64,000 nt of DNA from an uncultured Gammaproteobacteria bacterium (lineage in GTDB: Bacteria; Patescibacteriota; Microgenomatia; Woykebacterales; RBG-16-39-9b). Under the pieces are notes generated by a model that did no database searches, had not been told where the DNA came from, and saw only the letters and a program-made list of their open reading frames with translations. The stretch lies in assembly GCA_965231125.1 (NCBI GenBank), contig OZ246414.1, positions 512,137 to 576,136 on the forward strand, in the 5' to 3' direction. Each line of letters opens with the position of its first letter. Positions within the stretch are counted from its first letter, which is position 1. Shown here in pieces: positions 2,618 through 28,092 of this stretch. Position numbers and translations under genes: made by a program.

Positions 2618-4416
2618 ATGCCGAAGTAGGCACAGAAGTAAAATACGATTTAATCACAACTGCCGACGGTCTCGTAAAAATAATTGATGATTTGGAAAAA
2701 TCGCCCATTATTGGTTTGGACACTGAAGGTACGAAATTTGATCCGTTCACCGCGAAATTACTACTTTTACAAATATCTACGAAAAATAATATTTACGTTA
2801 TCGATAATGGTAAAGTAGATATCTCCCCAATAAAACACATTTTGGAGTCGGAAAGACCACTAAAAATCGCTCAAAACGCCAAGTTTGACTATTCGTTGTT
2901 AAAAGCCCAGGCGGGAGTAAAGCTAGGGGCGGTTTTTGATACTATGCTTGCCGAAAGAATTCTGACGATGGGGGTCTCTCGGGAAATATCTCTAAAGACG
3001 ATTGCGGAGAAATACCTAGGTGTAAAAATGGATAAGACAATCCGGGAAACTTTTACAGATCCTAGGAATAATACCGGCCAGGTAAACTTCACCAAAGAAC
3101 AGCTTGATTATGCGGCCCGTGACGTTTCAGTTCTTATTCCAATTTTCGAGAAACAGTTCAAAAAACTTCAAGAGGAAGGGTTAATCGAAGTAGCAAAGCT
3201 AGAATTTTTAGTTGTACCGGTTGTTTCAGAAATGGAACTAAGGGGATCGTTAATTGACCAAGTAAAGTGGCGAAAATATATAGCCGAGTTGCGGGAGAAG
3301 AGAGATATAATTAACAAAGAAATACAAGACGATTTGCGCCATTTAAGCCCTTACTCTCAAACAGATCTTTTTGGTAATGAGGTTGATACAATAAATCTCG
3401 ACTCGCCTTTACAACTTCTCACCGCTTTTAAAAAAATGGGGGTTGAGTTGCCCAATACCGCCGAAGCCACTTTACATAAATCCGCTCACCCCTTAGCAAA
3501 AAAACTTTTAGAGTACCGAGCTTACGAGAAAATGATCACTTCTTTTGGGGAGTCTATCCTTGAGAAAATTCACCCTATCACGGGCAGACTACACCCAGAT
3601 TTCATCCAGCTTGGGGCGGATACAGGTAGGTTTGCCTGCAATAATCCAAACTTACAACAAATACCGGCCGACTCCGGTTTCCGGAGTTGTTTTATCGCGA
3701 CTCCTGGTTACAAACTTATAACAGCTGATTATTCTCAAATTGAACTTAGAATAATGGCGGAAGTCAGCGGAGATCCGGCTTTTCTAGAAGCATTCCAAGA
3801 AGATACGGATTTGCACACTTTAACAGCGAGCCAAATGTTTCGAATGCCAATTGAGAAAGTTAATAAAGATAAAAGATTCCAAGCAAAATCAATTAATTTT
3901 GGCTTGATGTATGGTAGAGGGCCAGCTTCTTTAGCCAATCAAATCGGTCTTTCAGTCGAGGAATCGAGAAAGTTACTGGAAGTTTATTTTGCAAAATATA
4001 AAAAAGTAAAGCAGTGGCTAGATAATGTTGGTCGCCAATCAGTTCGCCAAGGGTACATCCGTACATTGAGCGGAAGGAAAAGAATGTTTAATTTACCGGA
4101 TAAAACTGATATGGATTACGAAAAATTGATTGGAGCAGTGGAGAGACAAGGGAAAAATACGCCTATACAAGGCACGAGCGCCGACATTACAAAGTACGCT
4201 TTGGTTTTTATAGAGCGGGAAATTAAAAGTAGGGGGCTGGACGCTTACTTAATTCACACTGTCCACGATGAAATTGTAACCGAGGCCGCCGAAGATACCG
4301 TAGAGGAAGTTGCCAGTTTAGTTGAGGAGCAAATGATTAAAGCGGGCGAAAAACTTTTGAAAAAAGTTCCGGTGAAAGTAGACATTCATATTTCAGAGTG
4401 TTGGGAAAAGGGTTAG
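2614..4416 (+). CDS. polA: DNA polymerase I, Klenow-like (3'-5' exonuclease + polymerase domains; no 5'-3' nuclease domain)
   Basis: Exo motifs GLDTEGT, NAKFDYSLL and YAARDVSVL. Polymerase motifs DYSQIELRIMAEVSGD, KSINFGLMYG and HTVHDEIV. Only 600 aa. Confidence 0.9.
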   Translation: MNAEVGTEVKYDLITTADGLVKIIDDLEKSPIIGLDTEGTKFDPFTAKLLLLQISTKNNIYVIDNGKVDISPIKHILESERPLKIAQNAKFDYSLLKAQAGVKLGAVFDTMLAERILTMGVSREISLKTIAEKYLGVKMDKTIRETFTDPRNNTGQVNFTKEQLDYAARDVSVLIPIFEKQFKKLQEEGLIEVAKLEFLVVPVVSEMELRGSLIDQVKWRKYIAELREKRDIINKEIQDDLRHLSPYSQTDLFGNEVDTINLDSPLQLLTAFKKMGVELPNTAEATLHKSAHPLAKKLLEYRAYEKMITSFGESILEKIHPITGRLHPDFIQLGADTGRFACNNPNLQQIPADSGFRSCFIATPGYKLITADYSQIELRIMAEVSGDPAFLEAFQEDTDLHTLTASQMFRMPIEKVNKDKRFQAKSINFGLMYGRGPASLANQIGLSVEESRKLLEVYFAKYKKVKQWLDNVGRQSVRQGYIRTLSGRKRMFNLPDKTDMDYEKLIGAVERQGKNTPIQGTSADITKYALVFIEREIKSRGLDAYLIHTVHDEIVTEAAEDTVEEVASLVEEQMIKAGEKLLKKVPVKVDIHISECWEKG

Positions 4417-9510: not shown

Positions 9511-10125
9511 GTGAAACTTACCGATGTAATATACGGTTTTCACCCGGTCATACGTTTGATGACCGCTCGGGTATCTGAGGAGGAGCTTTACACTGAGCAG
9601 CTAGCGAAGATGAGTGACGATGCTGTACGAGGCCATCTTAATCCAGATGTGCAGCGAGTTCTCTTTCTTCTTTACCATGCGGCGGTGACTGAAGACACAC
9701 TTTTGTACTTAATCACTCGTAACGCCCGTGTTTTTGATGTAGGCAGTTGGGAGTTTAGGCTCTGCCTACCCAGGCCTTATCGAAGCGGTGTGGTTCTAAC
9801 CGGTATTAGCGACACTGAGGCACTACGGATTGGTGCAAGTCTAAGTTTCTCACAATTGGAGAATTACCGATCCGCGGTATTTCAGAAAGGTTTATGGATT
9901 GCCCAAAACTTTTCTGAAGAAGTGCTTGATGAGCGGGTGGACACTCAGTGGGAGGAAGAGGTAGCCGCACGGTTCCATTCAGATGCTGTTCGCGACTCGG
10001 TGCTTGCTTTTTGGAGAGGTAAGAACGGCTTGTTCCTGCTTTTTCATGGCCTTGTCCACCAGCAGCAACACTTTGGAGAGGTGATATCACTGCTGGGTAG
10101 AGCTGGTCTAGCACCCAGGATTTAG
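9511..10125 (+). CDS. DinB/YfiT-like (DinB_2 superfamily) metal-dependent protein, hypothetical; GC-rich gene
   Basis: Spaced His residues and C-terminal LFHGLVHQQQHFGEV resemble the DinB_2 HxxHHxGQ region. GC about 55% versus about 40% in neighbours. Likely GTG start after a GGAGGG SD; ORF-track ATG at 9496. Confidence 0.4.
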   Translation: MKLTDVIYGFHPVIRLMTARVSEEELYTEQLAKMSDDAVRGHLNPDVQRVLFLLYHAAVTEDTLLYLITRNARVFDVGSWEFRLCLPRPYRSGVVLTGISDTEALRIGASLSFSQLENYRSAVFQKGLWIAQNFSEEVLDERVDTQWEEEVAARFHSDAVRDSVLAFWRGKNGLFLLFHGLVHQQQHFGEVISLLGRAGLAPRI

Positions 10126-22855: not shown

Positions 22856-23542
22856 TTAATTTAGTGAAGACGCTACCGGCAACACGTCGGCAAAAACGAA
22901 GTTATCTCTGGTAACAATTTCTCCAACCTCAATAGAAAGAGGGTGAGAAAACATCGGGCCAGCGTAAACGAACGTGTGAAACTCACCATTTTCTCCGCAG
23001 GCATCGGCTCCTTTCGGCAAGTCGCTTAAAAAGTCTTGATCCCAATCCCTGCCAGCGAAATTTTCTGTCAAGACCCTGGGATCAACGCAGGTCACCACTG
23101 CCCGCAAACCACCATCAAGCATTTCGGTAGCGAGGGCACCTGTCGGTTTACCCCACAGAGGAAAAATTAGTTCCAAGCCAGTACCAGCCATTTTCTTTTC
23201 CCGGTAGCGACGGATATCCTCAAGGAAAAGGTCACCAAAGGCAACGGTTGTAATTCCAGCTTTCTTGGCCTTCTCCAAAGCACTACTTATCGCTTTTTCG
23301 TACTGTTCATTAGTACAAAGGTTCGGTATGGGCACAGACCAGAGTTTTAGGCCGGCTGCCGTTGCTTGAGCTTCTAGCAACTCTCGACGTACCGAATGCA
23401 TAGCAACCCGATCAAATTCCTCGTTTATGGTCGTCAGGAGTCCCACCACCTCAAGACCGGGTTCCTTTCTAAGAGTTGCTAGGCTCCAGGCGCTATCTTT
23501 ACCACTCGACCAAGATAAAAGAACACGTCGTGGGGATTTCAT
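22856..23542 (-). CDS. PP-loop ATP pyrophosphatase, MJ0570/Dph6-like (DUF71) family
   Basis: N-terminal LLSWSSGKDSAWSL PP-loop (SGGKDS-type). 4-nt overlap with the upstream PBP-fold gene. Confidence 0.65.
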   Translation of the reverse strand: MKSPRRVLLSWSSGKDSAWSLATLRKEPGLEVVGLLTTINEEFDRVAMHSVRRELLEAQATAAGLKLWSVPIPNLCTNEQYEKAISSALEKAKKAGITTVAFGDLFLEDIRRYREKKMAGTGLELIFPLWGKPTGALATEMLDGGLRAVVTCVDPRVLTENFAGRDWDQDFLSDLPKGADACGENGEFHTFVYAGPMFSHPLSIEVGEIVTRDNFVFADVLPVASSLN

Positions 23543-24468
23543 AAAGGTAGTGAAACTTTCTCAGGCAATTTTAGAGCTTCAGTTTGATTAGGAGAACCAA
23601 AGACTTCTGGATGGAGAATTTTAGCTAAGATTTCTAGACCTTTATCAATAACACGCGGGCCAGATTGGTTAAAGAAGCTGGGCCCATCTACTATCCAAAC
23701 TTGACCCGTCTGAACTGCTGTGAGAGTATCCCAACCCTGAAATTTTAAACTTCTAATCTCGGCCTTTGTTTTCTCTACGGGAAACCCACAAGGCATCATG
23801 ATAATAATCTCCGGATTTTTGTCGAGTAAAGCCTCCCAAGGAACTTTCCTGGAAGGCCTGCCGGCAATTCCCAAAACTTCTTCTCCGCCAGCCACATCAA
23901 CCATTTCCGGTACCCAGTGACCAGAGGCAAAAAGAGGATCAAGCCACTCCAGACAAAAAACGCGTGGCTTTTCCAAGTGAGAGGTTTGAGATCTGAAATC
24001 CTCAACTTTGGTTCTCAATTTTTCGACTAATTTTTGAGCCTCTACCTTACGTTCCAAAGTTTTCCCAACCCTTAAAATGTCTTCAAGAATTTCCTTAAGG
24101 TTAGTCGGGTTGAGTACTATCAACTCCGGCTTGTTGGGTAGATCGCGAATGACTACGTTAACATCCTCTGGTGTGATTGCACAAACATCACAAAGCATTT
24201 GGGTGATCAAATGAGTTGGTGCCAAGGAGGTTAGTAGTTTTTTATCTAAGGAGTAAAGGCTTGCGTGCTCATGCATCTTTTTTTCAACGTGAGCGTCAAT
24301 TACCCTACTACTAGCGCTACTGTAATCAATATCAGTCGAACTTACACGAGGCTTGATCAAAACTTCTTTGGGATAGATACATTCGTGGGAAACGCCAACT
24401 AATTCCTTAGTTAAACCTAAAGAGCAAACGATTTCTGTCGCTGTTGGCAGAGTGGAAACAATCTTCAT
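23539..24468 (-). CDS. BtuF/FhuD-type (class 8) periplasmic-binding-protein-fold protein; no signal peptide evident
   Basis: Begins KIVSTLPTATEIVCSLGL...LVGVSHEC and continues ...PELIVLNP..., the characteristic start and blocks of cobalamin/siderophore SBPs. Start overlaps the upstream membrane-protein gene by 4 nt. Confidence 0.55.
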   Translation of the reverse strand: MKIVSTLPTATEIVCSLGLTKELVGVSHECIYPKEVLIKPRVSSTDIDYSSASSRVIDAHVEKKMHEHASLYSLDKKLLTSLAPTHLITQMLCDVCAITPEDVNVVIRDLPNKPELIVLNPTNLKEILEDILRVGKTLERKVEAQKLVEKLRTKVEDFRSQTSHLEKPRVFCLEWLDPLFASGHWVPEMVDVAGGEEVLGIAGRPSRKVPWEALLDKNPEIIIMMPCGFPVEKTKAEIRSLKFQGWDTLTAVQTGQVWIVDGPSFFNQSGPRVIDKGLEILAKILHPEVFGSPNQTEALKLPEKVSLPL

Positions 24469-25049
24469 GTAGTTAGAGCTAGGTTTCTATTCTTAGCTAG
24501 CCGTAAAACTAACTCATACGCACCAAAAAAACCTCCGGTGTAGAAGAGGTCGCCAAACAAAGTTCCTTGGAAGAAAGGAATGCCGGCAACATAACTTTCC
24601 CAAAGACCAAACAGGCCTCGGTCGTAGCTGCCAGCAAGCCACACTCCAGCGTTGGTGATTAAAAAGAATTGGACTGAACAAAATAGCGAGGCCGCAATAA
24701 CATTATTTATTGATTTATGCGAACGTAACCAAAGACCAATTAGTCCCGAAATTAAGAAGCTACCATAAACATAGATAATTCCACTGTAAAGGGCCGCTTG
24801 GGGTGGGTAAATGTGACTGAAGTCAATAAACTTTGATCCGAAAGGATGTATGTAAAGAAGTAAGTAGTCAGAGATTAAGAGAGTGGCCAGCGGGAGAACT
24901 AGCGAATAGCGCTTACTTAGATAAGTGCCTCCGAAAAGCCCCATGGCTGTAATCGGTGCAAAATTTGGTATATGAGGAACTAAACGTAATACTACCGCTG
25001 CGAGAACAAAGATAAGTGGGCCGGTGAGTTTTTCTAAAGTTTTTTGCAT
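24465..25049 (-). CDS. Small polytopic membrane protein (194 aa, ~6 TM); candidate ECF-S-component/BtuM-like vitamin transporter
   Basis: Size and topology fit solitary S-components. Translationally coupled into the operon with the PBP-fold gene. Family assignment is inference only. Confidence 0.35.
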   Translation of the reverse strand: MQKTLEKLTGPLIFVLAAVVLRLVPHIPNFAPITAMGLFGGTYLSKRYSLVLPLATLLISDYLLLYIHPFGSKFIDFSHIYPPQAALYSGIIYVYGSFLISGLIGLWLRSHKSINNVIAASLFCSVQFFLITNAGVWLAGSYDRGLFGLWESYVAGIPFFQGTLFGDLFYTGGFFGAYELVLRLAKNRNLALTT

Positions 25050-25057
25050 TTTCCTCC

Positions 25058-26314
25058 TTACCCTACAGTATTTTTTTCAAGTCGACTAGCTACTAATCGC
25101 AAAACTAAACCAGCTTCCAGAGCGATCAAACTAGCCAGCAAAAAATAGTTAATTTTAATTGGTTCGTTTTTATAATCAAGAGTTGGAACTAAAGAATCCA
25201 AACTAGGCGCAATTCCAGTATCTGGTAAAATACTTGCTGCTAAAACTTGACCTTGTTTATTGTTGTTTTGGCTAGTATTAATGCTTTGATTTTGGTTGTC
25301 CTGATTGTTTTGATTCTGGTCTTGATTATTCTGGTCATTACTATTTTGGTTGTCTCCTGGATTTGTAGAGGGTTGCGTGAAAGTTCCAGTAAATTCTCCA
25401 ACCGGAAAAGCCTTTTGTGCAAAAGCATTCAGCGCGTAACCGCTAGTGAAAGTATCCGCTCCAAATCCGGCCTGATATTGCACCCCGCCGCTGGTATCTT
25501 GCAAGCTAACCAAAAAGTTAAGACCGTCTTCCACTTCGCTATCATTGCCTAATACTGCTTGAACTACCCAAGCCGTTGAAGCACCGTCAGTTCCAAAACC
25601 GCTCTGGTACTCCCAACCGCCATTGGTTTGCTGCAAACCCAAGAGGTAGGCAGTACCGGTGTCAATCGCGTCGTCCAGCCCAGTGTTGGAAAAACCCTTG
25701 TCCTGAGCAGCTTTCAATGCTTCAACAGCTACGGCCGTGTCATTAGTATCACTGGCCCCGCTAACTTGAAAGCTCCAACCGTGATCGGCGTTTTGATTGG
25801 CGATCAGAAAATTAACACTGTCGGAAATAATGGTTTGGTTGGCACTCGGTCCGGCAGAAATTAAGGAGAGAATTCCAAAAATATCGTCATTCAAGAGGGT
25901 TGTCGAGCCAATTTGATTGCTGGAAGCGAAGCTTTGCACTTTGGCAACATAATTTCGACCGCCGAAAGTAAACGGGTTTTCGCCGGCAGCAGTAACGGCC
26001 AACAAATCCCTCTCCCAACCGGTAGTTGCAGTATCGATCGGTGGGTTGTTTTTCAGGAAATCGACTAGCGACACACCGCCGTTTTGCACGGTGTGTGGGT
26101 CAATTCCCACGGCCGCTAAACCCATCACCGTCCAACTAGTTTCCCCACCAAAACCGGTTATTTTACCGGTAGCGTCTTGATTAGCCTGCAAATAGGCAAC
26201 CAAGGAACTAATGTTGCTGCTATAATCGGGCACTGCCGCCAAAGCAGAAACAGGCGCTAGTAAAGTGGCAGAAAGCAGGGTTGTAAACAAGGCAGCTTTT
26301 CTTAAAGTAGACAT
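25058..26314 (-). CDS. Sortase-anchored (LPDTG) surface protein with prenyltransferase/squalene-cyclase-like alpha/alpha-barrel repeats; transcobalamin alpha-domain-like
   Basis: Signal peptide. Repeats GFGGETSWTVMGLAAVG, NGGWEYQSGFGTDGASTAWVVQAVLG and SGGVQYQAGFGAD are typical of Prenyltrans repeats. N/Q-rich stalk (NQDQNQNNQDNQNQ). LPDTG, then TM and KN tail. Confidence 0.6.
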   Translation of the reverse strand: MSTLRKAALFTTLLSATLLAPVSALAAVPDYSSNISSLVAYLQANQDATGKITGFGGETSWTVMGLAAVGIDPHTVQNGGVSLVDFLKNNPPIDTATTGWERDLLAVTAAGENPFTFGGRNYVAKVQSFASSNQIGSTTLLNDDIFGILSLISAGPSANQTIISDSVNFLIANQNADHGWSFQVSGASDTNDTAVAVEALKAAQDKGFSNTGLDDAIDTGTAYLLGLQQTNGGWEYQSGFGTDGASTAWVVQAVLGNDSEVEDGLNFLVSLQDTSGGVQYQAGFGADTFTSGYALNAFAQKAFPVGEFTGTFTQPSTNPGDNQNSNDQNNQDQNQNNQDNQNQSINTSQNNNKQGQVLAASILPDTGIAPSLDSLVPTLDYKNEPIKINYFLLASLIALEAGLVLRLVASRLEKNTVG

Positions 26315-26327
26315 AATTTTACCTCCT

Positions 26328-26948
26328 TTATGTCGTTTTCCAAGTAATAATATTGTCTGGGCTCAAAGTATCCAAGGAAACACCCTTACCTTTCCCTGGT
26401 ACATCTTTCCCATCTTTATCTTTCACGGTATAAGTCCAGCACTCACAGTTGTGCCCATGGAGCTCGGTGATGTAGTAACTATTCAAGGGCGCACCGTACC
26501 AGCGGGCAACGAGCGAAAATTTATTCTCACTACTAGCCTTAACTAAGACATCATAAACCGTCATCCCAGCCGACCAGCTAACTTGATAAGGGTAATTGCC
26601 CGACCCAGTGTTGATGTTGAGAGTAACTGTTTGTTCAACTGGAGCCGGTGCGGTTGGAGTGGGATTTGAATTAGCCGAATTTTTATTGGAAGTTTGTTTT
26701 TGAGTTGTTTGGTAGGTAGTAGTTCCCTGAACTTGGTTTTTGGTAGTGGGTGGAGTAATAGTTTGTTGGTCGGCAGTGCTAGTCTCCTGAGTTTTGTTGC
26801 TAGTTGTAACTGTACTGCCTTGCGGTTTTGGTTCAGCCTTTTTCTCACTACCCAAAAACTTCGGTGTCGCAATTACCAAACCAATTACTAAAAGGGTTGG
26901 AATTAAGATTAAGTTTTTCTGCACAATGTTTTTTACTTTAGAAAACAT
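26328..26948 (-). CDS. Membrane-anchored DUF4430-like (intrinsic-factor/transcobalamin beta-domain-like) protein
   Basis: N-terminal TM. T/Q-rich stalk. C-terminal ~95 aa TVTLNINTG..GMTVYDVLVKAS...GAPLNSYYITEL..CWTYTVKDKDG..VSLDTLSPDNIITWKT fits the DUF4430 pattern (G.tv.d.L...W.y.vNg......L.dGD.I.W). Second Met used as start (GAGAAGG SD); ORF-track start is 26972. Confidence 0.5.
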   Translation of the reverse strand: MFSKVKNIVQKNLILIPTLLVIGLVIATPKFLGSEKKAEPKPQGSTVTTSNKTQETSTADQQTITPPTTKNQVQGTTTYQTTQKQTSNKNSANSNPTPTAPAPVEQTVTLNINTGSGNYPYQVSWSAGMTVYDVLVKASSENKFSLVARWYGAPLNSYYITELHGHNCECWTYTVKDKDGKDVPGKGKGVSLDTLSPDNIITWKTT

Positions 26949-26989
26949 AAAAGCCTTCTCTACTCGAGGCAAAGGAGGCTATCAAAAAA

Positions 26990-27145
26990 CCTTCTCGAGC
27001 TACAAGAAGGTTTAAAAGATTGATATGACAATCCTTGCTCGAGGAACTTACAAAGGCTTGGGTTCTGGGTTTACAGTAGCGGCACTCCCCTGGAATTGCA
27101 CCAGGATTCACTTAAACACCTTTGCTCTAAATTGTTAAAGTACTA
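26990..27145 (-). ncRNA. Cobalamin-riboswitch-like 5' leader (partial core) with intrinsic terminator
   Basis: Minus-strand RNA GUGAAUCCUGGUGCAAUUCCAGGGGAGUGCCGCUACUGUAAAC aligns block-for-block with the btuB-type core GGGAAUCCAGUGCGAAUCUGGAGCUGACGCGCAGCGGUAAGG. Followed by hairpin AAACCUUCU-N9-AGAAGGUUU plus UUUUUU. A canonical B12 box was not found. Confidence 0.4.
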
Positions 27146-27147
27146 CG

Positions 27148-27176
27148 ATTTTAATCGTGTATATCAAAACTGTCAA
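27148..27176 (-). promoter_or_regulatory. Sigma70-like promoter (TTGACA-17-TAAAAT) for the minus-strand B12-like operon
   Basis: On the minus strand: TTGACAgttttgatatacacgatTAAAAT, about 200 nt upstream of the DUF4430-like gene ATG. Confidence 0.45.
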
Positions 27177-27303
27177 TACCCTTTTATGTAAACTAATAGT
27201 AGAATTACCAATATCGCTCTTCTTGACACTGATAGTTTGTTGGACGGTTTGAGGAACCTCTACCTTTCTTGACCTCAACTACAATCCGTTTATAATTTAG
27301 TTA

Positions 27304-28092
27304 ATGTCGCTTTCTATTTTTAAAAAATTGGCTGCTAAGGACATAATTCTAGCCACTCTGCTAATACTTCTAATTCCCAGTGCGTTATTCGTAGGTTGGG
27401 AAAAAGTAATTCTTCAAACAGTTATTTGTGCCTTTGTAACCATCTCTTTGGATCTTGGAATAAACTTTCTAAAAAAGACTAAATATTTCTTTCCAAAGGC
27501 TGGGTTAATCACTGGGCTGATAGTAGCCCTGGTACTCCCTATCGGCGTGAATCCATTGATCGCCGCTTTTGCTGCTCTGGTGGCAATTTTTAGCAAGCAA
27601 TTTATAAAGATAGGCCGTAATCATATTTTTAATCCCGCTACCTTTGGGTTGGTGGTTGCTGCTGTCTTGTTTAAAATTCCCCTTGGTTGGTGGGGGGACA
27701 ATCTAATCTGGCTAACGATCCCTTTGGGAATGCTAGCAGTGCTGCGAGCAAGAAAAGAGCTACAAGTAATCGGTTTTGTCGCCACCTACGTTTTGATTGA
27801 GTATCTGTTCATCAAGCTCTATATTCCAAACGACATCACTGCTTTGAAGACAGCCTTTGAGACCAATTCCTGGTTCTTTGCTCTTTTCATGGTGCCAGAG
27901 CCGATGACTTCTCTGCTTCCGTATCGACTCAGCCCTATTTTCGGTTTTATTGCAGCCTCTGCTGGGATTAATTTATCTTTAATTAAATTTACTCCCATTT
28001 CAAACAACTCGCTTTTACTTGGGCTTTTGGTTGCCAATGCTGTTGCTTTTATTTACCTTTTTCTTCAACGCAGAGAAGCTAAAGGACACTAA
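27304..28092 (+). CDS. RnfD/NqrB-family-like polytopic membrane protein (orphan, 262 aa)
   Basis: GRNHIFNPATFGLVVAAVLF matches the (G)RxxFNPA(l) signature of NQR2/RnfD/RnfE proteins. Multiple TM helices. Shorter than canonical RnfD. Confidence 0.4.
   Translation: MSLSIFKKLAAKDIILATLLILLIPSALFVGWEKVILQTVICAFVTISLDLGINFLKKTKYFFPKAGLITGLIVALVLPIGVNPLIAAFAALVAIFSKQFIKIGRNHIFNPATFGLVVAAVLFKIPLGWWGDNLIWLTIPLGMLAVLRARKELQVIGFVATYVLIEYLFIKLYIPNDITALKTAFETNSWFFALFMVPEPMTSLLPYRLSPIFGFIAASAGINLSLIKFTPISNNSLLLGLLVANAVAFIYLFLQRREAKGH

Follow-up and report, generated by a model that had tools for sequence, protein, structure and literature searches.

The stretch of DNA analysed here (the window) comprises 64,000 nucleotides (nt) of contig OZ246414.1 and comes from a bacterium of the candidate phyla radiation (CPR). 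On its minus strand it carries an operon of five genes, preceded by a leader that a first-pass annotation, made from the letters alone, had described as a partial cobalamin-riboswitch-like core followed by an intrinsic terminator. All leader elements are read on the minus strand, and helix numbering follows PMC10327014 and PMC5028336; coordinates are collected in Table 1. Judged from the sequence, the leader is quite probably a cobalamin (corrinoid) riboswitch of the short class-II type (RF01689, AdoCbl-II), in which an L5-L13 kissing loop would control a terminator and repress a corrinoid-capture and uptake operon.

Table 1. Features of the leader and of the operon behind it (MFE, minimum free energy; SD, Shine-Dalgarno sequence).
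Feature	Position	Strand	Sequence, support or family
Sigma-70-type promoter	27148..27176	-	-35 TTGACA 27176-71, 17-nt spacer, -10 TAAAAT 27153-48; 11/12 matches in promoter scan
A/U-rich segment	27129..27141	-	ACUUUAACAAUUU; conserved
Class-II cobalamin aptamer, 74-nt structured core	27051..27124	-	RF01689 full-model alignment; clade covariance model
P1	27124-19 / 27056-51	-	CAAAGG/CCUUUG
5' bulge	27118-16	-	UGU
P3	27115-11 / 27061-57	-	UUAAG/CCAAG: U.G, U-A, A.A, A.C, G-C
J3/4	27110-06	-	UGAAU
P4 with L4	27105-01 / 27093-89	-	L4 UGCAAUU
P5 with L5	27086-85 / 27079-78	-	L5 UGCCG (27084-80)
P6	27076-74 / 27067-65	-	3 base pairs (bp)
J6/3	27064-62	-	AAC
P13 hairpin	27032..27045	-	UCCU-CGAGCA-AGGA; L13 27041-36; stem covaries CCU/AGG vs CUU/AAG
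Alternative (spacer) hairpin	27015..27035	-	AAGGAUUG / CAAUCUUU; -6.4 kcal/mol, within platform MFE
Intrinsic terminator	26984..27013	-	AAACCUUCUUG - UAGCU - CGAGAAGGUUU, then U run; hairpin -13.4 kcal/mol
SD-sequestering hairpin	26953..26979	-	GCCUCCUUUGC - CUCGA - GUAGAGAAGGC; SD GAGAAGG 26960-54; in leader MFE
Gene 1, membrane-anchored protein with low-complexity linker and C-terminal domain like transcobalamin beta domain (DUF4430)	26328..26948	-	
Gene 2, alpha/alpha-toroid, squalene-cyclase/prenyltransferase-repeat-like	25058..26314	-	PF13243
Gene 3, DUF6580 membrane protein, candidate corrinoid transporter component	24465..25049	-	PF20221, 166 bits
Gene 4, BtuF/IsdE-like periplasmic binding protein	23539..24468	-	PF01497; weak BtuF and IsdE NCBIfam matches
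Gene 5, Dph6-like ATP pyrophosphatase	22856..23542	-	PF01902

The basic elements of the leader lie where the first-pass annotation had put them. Its promoter, about 200 nt from the first gene, was recovered by the promoter scan, with the start codon (ATG, 26948-46) 200 nt past the -10 hexamer. TTGACA-N17/18-TAnnnT is kept 5' of the aptamer in clade relatives, and the window hexamers share that spacing. The first bases of the transcript are probably those of the A/U-rich segment ACUUUAACAAUUU (27141-29). In most relatives with a P1 of CAAAGG, ACUUUAAnAAUUU is kept 6-7 nt after the -10 hexamer, even with an extra hairpin between ACUUUAAnAAUUU and P1. The reported hairpin with six U residues, followed by an SD sequence, was also found. 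Its core stem, CCUUCUUG/CGAGAAGG (27010-27003 / 26997-90), has 8 bp, one of them U.G, and could be lengthened by AAA/UUU, with a UAGCU loop and the U6 at 26989-84. A simple terminator scanner did not return this hairpin, possibly because the AAA/UUU extension of the stem consumes the U run. The SD hairpin is kept in relatives, with a compensatory exchange of CCUCC/GGAGG for CCUUC/GAAGG.

The class of the aptamer was examined with Rfam, a check that the first-pass annotation had proposed. In a permissive scan with E-value reporting, which the match required, RF01689 (AdoCbl-II, formerly AdoCbl-variant; clan CL00101) aligned its full 81-position model to 27124-27051. The score of 29.1 bits does not reach the gathering score of 36.5 bits; searching the leader alone gives an E-value of 6.4e-5, and searching the whole window with all 4,227 families gives 0.011. 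The check is thus answered in part, with a significant E-value and no cobalamin model at its gathering score. The proposed membership in the cobalamin family stands, and the suggestion of a partial or truncated core does not, as model positions 1-81 are all aligned. The low score results from the inner 5-bp helix of the model, which is unmatched in the window; everything else is present in this alignment, from the outer helix and the GUGNAAUUC-type hairpin to the pair of 3-bp hairpins and the strands of the junction. Translated into helices, P1 encloses the aptamer, and P4 with its conserved 7-nt loop, a short P5, a short P6 and conserved J3/4 and J6/3 are all found within 27110-27062, while no proper P3 closes the four-way junction in the window copy.

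The same architecture is found at other loci, and in 12 of the 18 loci tested a copy scores 37-50 bits, above the RF01689 gathering score; the architecture is therefore that of an established Rfam class. The orthologous leaders L001 and L003 fall below this score as well, with 34.8 and 33.6 bits. In L002 the leader matches RF01482 with 47.6 bits against a gathering score of 50, in an alignment that covers the 3' hairpin of the model, at the position of P13. The window shares with RF01689 riboswitches such as env8HyCbl the P1, the 5' bulge, the P3 position, the four-way junction, the short P4 with its 7-nt GUGNAAUUC-type L4, the short P5, the short P6 without extension, a downstream P13 as kissing-loop partner and B12 genes downstream. 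It differs from the model in the score, in two mismatches within P3, and in L5, which is UGCCG in the window and aCCU in the model consensus. Because the gathering score is missed and one defining helix is mismatched, the riboswitch is regarded as a variant of class II by descent and not as a clean member.

E. coli btuB, of the RF00174 type, has a P6 extension and a larger aptamer. The window shares with it the core motifs of J3/4, P4, P5 and the start of P6, but its P6 has only 3 bp and it lacks the canonical B12 box of btuB. As first reported, no B12 box was found: AGYCMGGAGACCKGCC has no match with up to three mismatches anywhere in the window, which fits the short class-II architecture without P6 extension. 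The btuB 40-mer quoted for comparison in the first-pass annotation is genuine, with exact matches in over 5,200 E. coli genomes at a feature that bears the annotation 'riboswitch', and the 41-nt RNA quoted from the window, GUGAAUCCUGGUGCAAUUCCAGGGGAGUGCCGCUACUGUAA, is located at 27111-27071 on the minus strand. Its assignment to P2/P3 has to be revised, for in the Rfam and clade alignments this stretch covers J3/4, P4/L4, P5/L5 and the 5' arm and loop of P6. The true oddity of the leader is its mismatched P3, not the missing B12 box. Control of btuB is translational, through a hairpin at the ribosome-binding site (RBS) (PMC10327014).

Relatives of the leader were compared to establish its structure. 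Homologues of gene 1 are 38-52% identical, two of them from genomes named Candidatus Woykebacteria, and their loci carry the same operon of gene 1, toroid protein and DUF6580 protein, joined in L001 and L003 by a Peripla_BP_2 protein. In the Woykebacteria metagenome-assembled genomes the same leader lies 5' of this operon, with aptamer, P13, terminator and SD hairpin in common. The core GUGCCGCnACnGU is invariant when these leaders are aligned, and the P4 stem is compensatory (CCUGG/CCAGG, GGCCG/CGGCC, GUCUG/CAGAC). Almost no variation is seen in the downstream CGAGCA hairpin, in the terminator or in the anti-SD strand CCUyCUUUGC, and AGCUCGAGAAGGUUUUUUG of the terminator is invariant in an alignment of nine leaders (five distinct sequences). 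A scan for the invariant core with one genome per species returned at least 120 loci across many phyla, most of them followed by a yCGAGCAr hairpin.

A larger clade sample was obtained from a metagenome scan with the clade P5-P6 sequence, which gave 33 loci; together with the window and the loci collected before, these amount to 30 distinct sequences. The structure P1/P3/P4/P5/P6 was then tested on 24 relatives, with the window excluded. Paired cells make up 92.8% of the total, compared with 79.8% in shuffles, and the covariation score is 0.365, compared with 0.135 in shuffles (none of 500 reaches 0.365) and at most 0.104 in slid registers. All cells of P4 are paired (100%), and 4/5 of its pairs show compensatory changes; P3 is 97.9% paired with compensatory changes at 2/4 pairs (C-G or U-A; U-A or G-C), its two junction-proximal G-C pairs being invariant in 24/24. 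P1 is conserved in the Woykebacteria-type subgroup, and four of its six pairs are changed on both sides across the clade. By this comparison, the aptamer at 27124-27051 has its homologues in a clade that numbers at least 30 sequences and shows compensatory changes in P1, P3 and P4. The window keeps 35 of 36 clade-invariant columns at a protein identity of only about 50% to the nearest orthologues, which argues for long-term purifying selection on the aptamer.

These data also bear on whether the likeness to a riboswitch could be a chance resemblance, that is, an ordinary attenuator or terminator without a metabolite-sensing aptamer. Such a reading would accommodate the sub-gathering match and a folding z-score of just -2.0 for the whole leader. 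It is already contradicted by the covariation, clade-model and synteny results: the full-length RF01689 alignment is significant by E-value, the window reaches an E-value of 1e-22 with the clade model, the helices of the relatives carry compensatory changes, and B12 genes accompany the element across CPR lineages. A chance resemblance is therefore given almost no weight.

Another explanation takes the platform hairpins as sites of protein-dependent attenuation of the PyrR type. It originates from a sub-threshold match of RF00515 at 27059-26945, with 26.7 bits and E=0.095. The gathering score of that family is 54 bits, twice the score observed, and the alignment only threads three pyrimidine/purine hairpins. 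The riboswitch platform already explains these hairpins, which recur together with the aptamer, and the operon has no pyrimidine genes. A PyrR-type attenuator was rejected on these grounds and is considered very improbable.

Several results weigh against the riboswitch assignment. With Rfam gathering thresholds, the whole window yielded three tRNAs only. The covariance model built from the 24 relatives finds the window copy with 76 bits (E about 1e-22) as the sole match in 64 kb, yet the search pattern had fixed P5 and P6, so both helices are uninformative and this score is partly circular. Within P3, A27113.A27059 stands where relatives have U-A or G-C (one C-G), and A27112.C27060 replaces the G-C pair that is invariant in all 24 relatives. 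Nearest-neighbour energies give no stable P3 in the window copy, and a misfold of -16.5 kcal/mol beats the consensus fold, which consists of P1, P4, P5 and P6 only, at -12.8 to -14.3 kcal/mol. The MFE structure of the whole leader misses the aptamer, and in the misfold P1 is paired with part of P5/P6; it is accordingly comparison among relatives, not folding, that supports the secondary structure. An 'extended P1' re-pairing (U.G, a bulged G, two U-A) was tried as an offset for the damaged P3 and rejected, since it brings no gain (-12.0 vs -12.8 kcal/mol).

Among about 30 distinct clade sequences, only the window copy has a broken P3; the other members form CGGG/CCCG, CUGG/CCAG, UUGG/CCAA or CUUGG/CCAAG. 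Its score with the clade model lies 16-26 bits below those of the other members with a P1 of CAAAGG. The same allele was recovered in two further assemblies, a Joint Genome Institute (JGI) metagenome contig with one single-nucleotide polymorphism elsewhere in the leader and an identical Logan assembly, and it is therefore not an assembly error. A second weakening change, the mismatch C26975.A26957, is present in the SD hairpin, which in relatives has no mismatch. The junction-closing pair of P3, G27111-C27061, is kept.

The switch may thus be weakened by its two adjacent P3 mismatches, and the question is how far. According to one explanation, the riboswitch is decaying or derepressed: the P3 lesion would have abolished or strongly cut ligand binding, the kissing loop would go unstabilised, the antiterminator would form and the operon would be expressed almost constitutively. 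The private lesion at an otherwise invariant pair, the reduced score, the misfold, the change in the SD hairpin and the fixation of the allele in three assemblies are all in keeping with this explanation. On the other hand, L13, P13, the terminator and the promoter are intact and 35/36 invariant columns are kept despite deep divergence; G27111-C27061 can still form together with the distal U-A and U.G of P3; and the sister leaders L001 and L002 tolerate another P1/P3 layout, a continuous helix without bulge. Decay is accordingly held to be unlikely, though clearly not negligible. The window copy is thought reasonably likely to respond to ligand still. A full response, with P3 as a mismatched internal loop and the junction effectively closed by P1, is somewhat doubtful. 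If a full response without P3 were true, the otherwise invariant G-C pair of P3 would be dispensable and the functional core of class-II cobalamin riboswitches smaller. In a related scenario, an obligate B12 scavenger may carry a switch whose affinity or corrinoid selectivity was retuned by the lesion. The private lesion constitutes a small natural experiment on the junction requirement of the class-II aptamer.

The clade contains other departures from the usual layout. L4 is usually a conserved 7-nt loop, and in three members it holds an insertion of about 29-32 nt that can fold a hairpin of its own (L004 2767-2810, L149 ~1124-1165, L159 ~9530-9573). In one leader of a genome contig, L112, two AdoCbl-II aptamers lie in tandem, at 2239-2311 (47.2 bits) and 2378-2470 (45.3 bits).

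The output of the preferred reading, a class-II riboswitch, would depend on a hairpin that the first-pass annotation had overlooked, P13, whose loop is complementary both to L5 and to the terminator. In corrinoid riboswitches the ligand stabilises an L5-L13 kissing loop, which keeps P13 closed; when no ligand is bound, a segment of P13 base-pairs with the terminator instead and acts as an antiterminator (PMC10327014). As a rule, the kissing loop is interrupted by at least one unpaired nucleotide (PMC5028336), and L5, L13 and P13 of the window fit this pattern by sequence. The proposed kissing loop has five pairs (U27084-A27036, G27083-C27037, C27082-G27038, C27081-G27040, G27080-C27041), with A27039 bulged. 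The published L5 consensus of corrinoid riboswitches is UCCCG (PMC10327014).

The association of the two loops was examined across genomes. Of 121 loci whose L5 reads UGCCG, 66 have CGAGCA downstream and 14 have it upstream; if only copies in a hairpin with 3 bp or more are counted, the numbers are 55 and 3. CGAGGA is not enriched among these loci. The consensus L5, UCCCG, is accompanied by an L13 of CGAGGA in L167 and in the RF01482 consensus, the expected matching change, in a small sample. A scan of viral contigs for aptamers with an L5 of UCCCG gave about four real riboswitches, too few for statistical covariation of the kissing loop.

P13 alone is weak, with 4 bp and -2.9 kcal/mol, and the alternative hairpin at 27035-27015 uses its 3' arm and thus excludes it. 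An equivalent of this alternative hairpin is found in L004, and the spacers differ in other relatives. CUCGAGC (27043-37), which comprises the P13 5' arm and L13, is complementary to GCUCGAG (27000-26994) in the loop and 3' arm of the terminator. This pairing is available in 8/8 distinct leaders with this terminator, among spacers that vary in length and sequence. When the transcript ends at GCUCGAG, the antiterminator together with the spacer hairpin is the MFE structure at -15.6 kcal/mol. CUCGAGC:GCUCGAG is the preferred candidate for the antiterminator. A CAAGGA:UUCUUG antiterminator, made of the P13 3' arm and the terminator 5' arm as in Priestia megaterium metE, was rejected, being only -1.9 kcal/mol and poorly conserved.

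The mechanism is likely to be an OFF switch, its steps from ligand to termination being drawn by analogy with dissected corrinoid riboswitches. With ligand present, cobalamin in the four-way junction would stabilise the kissing loop between L5 (UGCCG) and L13 (CGAGCA, A27039 bulged), which would keep the weak 4-bp P13 closed. The terminator at 27013-26984 could then form and transcription would halt, while the SD of any read-through mRNA would stay within the second hairpin. With ligand absent, P13 would open and its 3' arm would join the hairpin at 27035-27015; CUCGAGC (27043-37) would pair with GCUCGAG (27000-26994) once transcribed, blocking the terminator 3' arm and permitting read-through. 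The terminator hairpin (Table 1) and its complementarity to P13 agree with the OFF-switch terminator first suggested for this leader. The complete platform prefers the terminator, at -19.8 to -21.4 kcal/mol vs -15.0 kcal/mol for the antiterminator, so that any switching would need to be under kinetic control. Since neither the L13 motif nor the terminator motif varies within the clade, the sequences are consistent with the kissing loop and antiterminator but give no proof of them by covariation.

Two known systems are close to this proposal. In env8HyCbl the RBS lies within L13 and control is translational (PMC5028336), whereas the L13 of the window is CGAGCA and its output is a terminator with a separate SD hairpin. 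P. megaterium metE, a transcriptional riboswitch (PMC10327014), follows the same logic, in which a ligand-stabilised kissing loop holds a weak P13 and P13 pairs with the terminator as antiterminator. Its L5, however, matches UCCCG, and the kissing loop predicted for it consists of five uninterrupted base pairs; the candidate antiterminator of the window instead joins the P13 5' arm and loop to the terminator loop and 3' arm.

A second platform type occurs in the aptamer clade (L134, L136, L141, L146, L152, L157 and L161). Here CCAACC-AACUUUGC-GGUUGG and a U run make up the terminator; its stem covaries, and its invariant loop, ACUUUGC, is complementary to GCAAAG, which spans L13 and the P13 3' arm. 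The arrangement parallels the antiterminator logic proposed for the window.

The downstream operon had been taken to be B12-related, and its products agree with that view: DUF6580, BtuF-like and transcobalamin-like proteins, together with the gene context in CPR genomes, support the B12 theme independently of the RNA. Gene 1 has an N-terminal transmembrane helix, a linker rich in S, T, P and Q, and a DUF4430-like beta-domain fold. Its product has no Pfam match; its homologue P0010 carries PF14478 (DUF4430). The predicted structure is of moderate confidence (predicted local distance difference test, pLDDT, 63-82 over most of the C-terminal domain), and in a fold search the top 14 PDB matches are all transcobalamin (beta domain), with probabilities of 0.85-1.0. 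PDB sequence searches with genes 1-3 gave no B12-binding protein, and the transcobalamin link comes from the gene 1 fold search only. DUF4430 is the C-terminal domain of transcobalamins (PMC4350170). The translation of gene 2 ends in an LPDTG motif and a hydrophobic tail, like a sortase signal. Taken together, the products of genes 1 and 2 resemble a transcobalamin-like binder at the cell surface, split over two proteins. In L010, from Komeilibacteria, toroid and DUF4430 are fused in the first open reading frame (ORF) 3' of the same riboswitch type (core match 3033-3059, minus strand).

Gene 3 is kept in the operon of all relatives. Gene 5, the last gene, overlaps gene 4 by 4 nt, is translationally coupled to it, and is absent from the operons of the relatives. 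Among loci with enough upstream DNA, the operon in L001-L005 lies directly 3' of a class II-type ribonucleotide reductase. This reductase (PF00317, PF02867, PF12637) was located in L001 (2374-5385), L002 (2223-5317), L003 (2481-5592) and L004 (150-2699), and is preceded by nrdR in L001-L003. The window has instead a divergent RnfD-like gene as neighbour (27304-28092, plus strand), and no B12-dependent enzyme was found among its ten largest ORFs. In other CPR genomes the same riboswitch type is located 5' of genes for PduO-type adenosyltransferase, NrdD and DUF4430 proteins. A search of one literature collection found nothing on cobalamin riboswitches of Patescibacteria, nothing on DUF6580 and almost nothing on bacterial DUF4430.

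The leader belongs to a known kind of riboswitch, ordinary apart from its mismatched P3, and it does not change the existing understanding of how such riboswitches work. Its main value is in annotation, as a real cobalamin riboswitch that lies below the Rfam gathering threshold, as do the orthologous leaders of L001 and L003. It also assigns a role in B12 biology to a poorly characterised CPR operon of DUF4430-like, sortase-anchored toroid, DUF6580 and BtuF-like proteins.

An uncharacterised family of about 350-370 amino acids was also observed 3' of cobalamin riboswitches in Levyibacteriota and other Patescibacteria, as the first ORF in L023, L059 and L074. Its members have an SPPGQ motif and a zinc-ribbon-like C-terminal end, CxxC...CxxC; those of L023 and L059 have no Pfam match.

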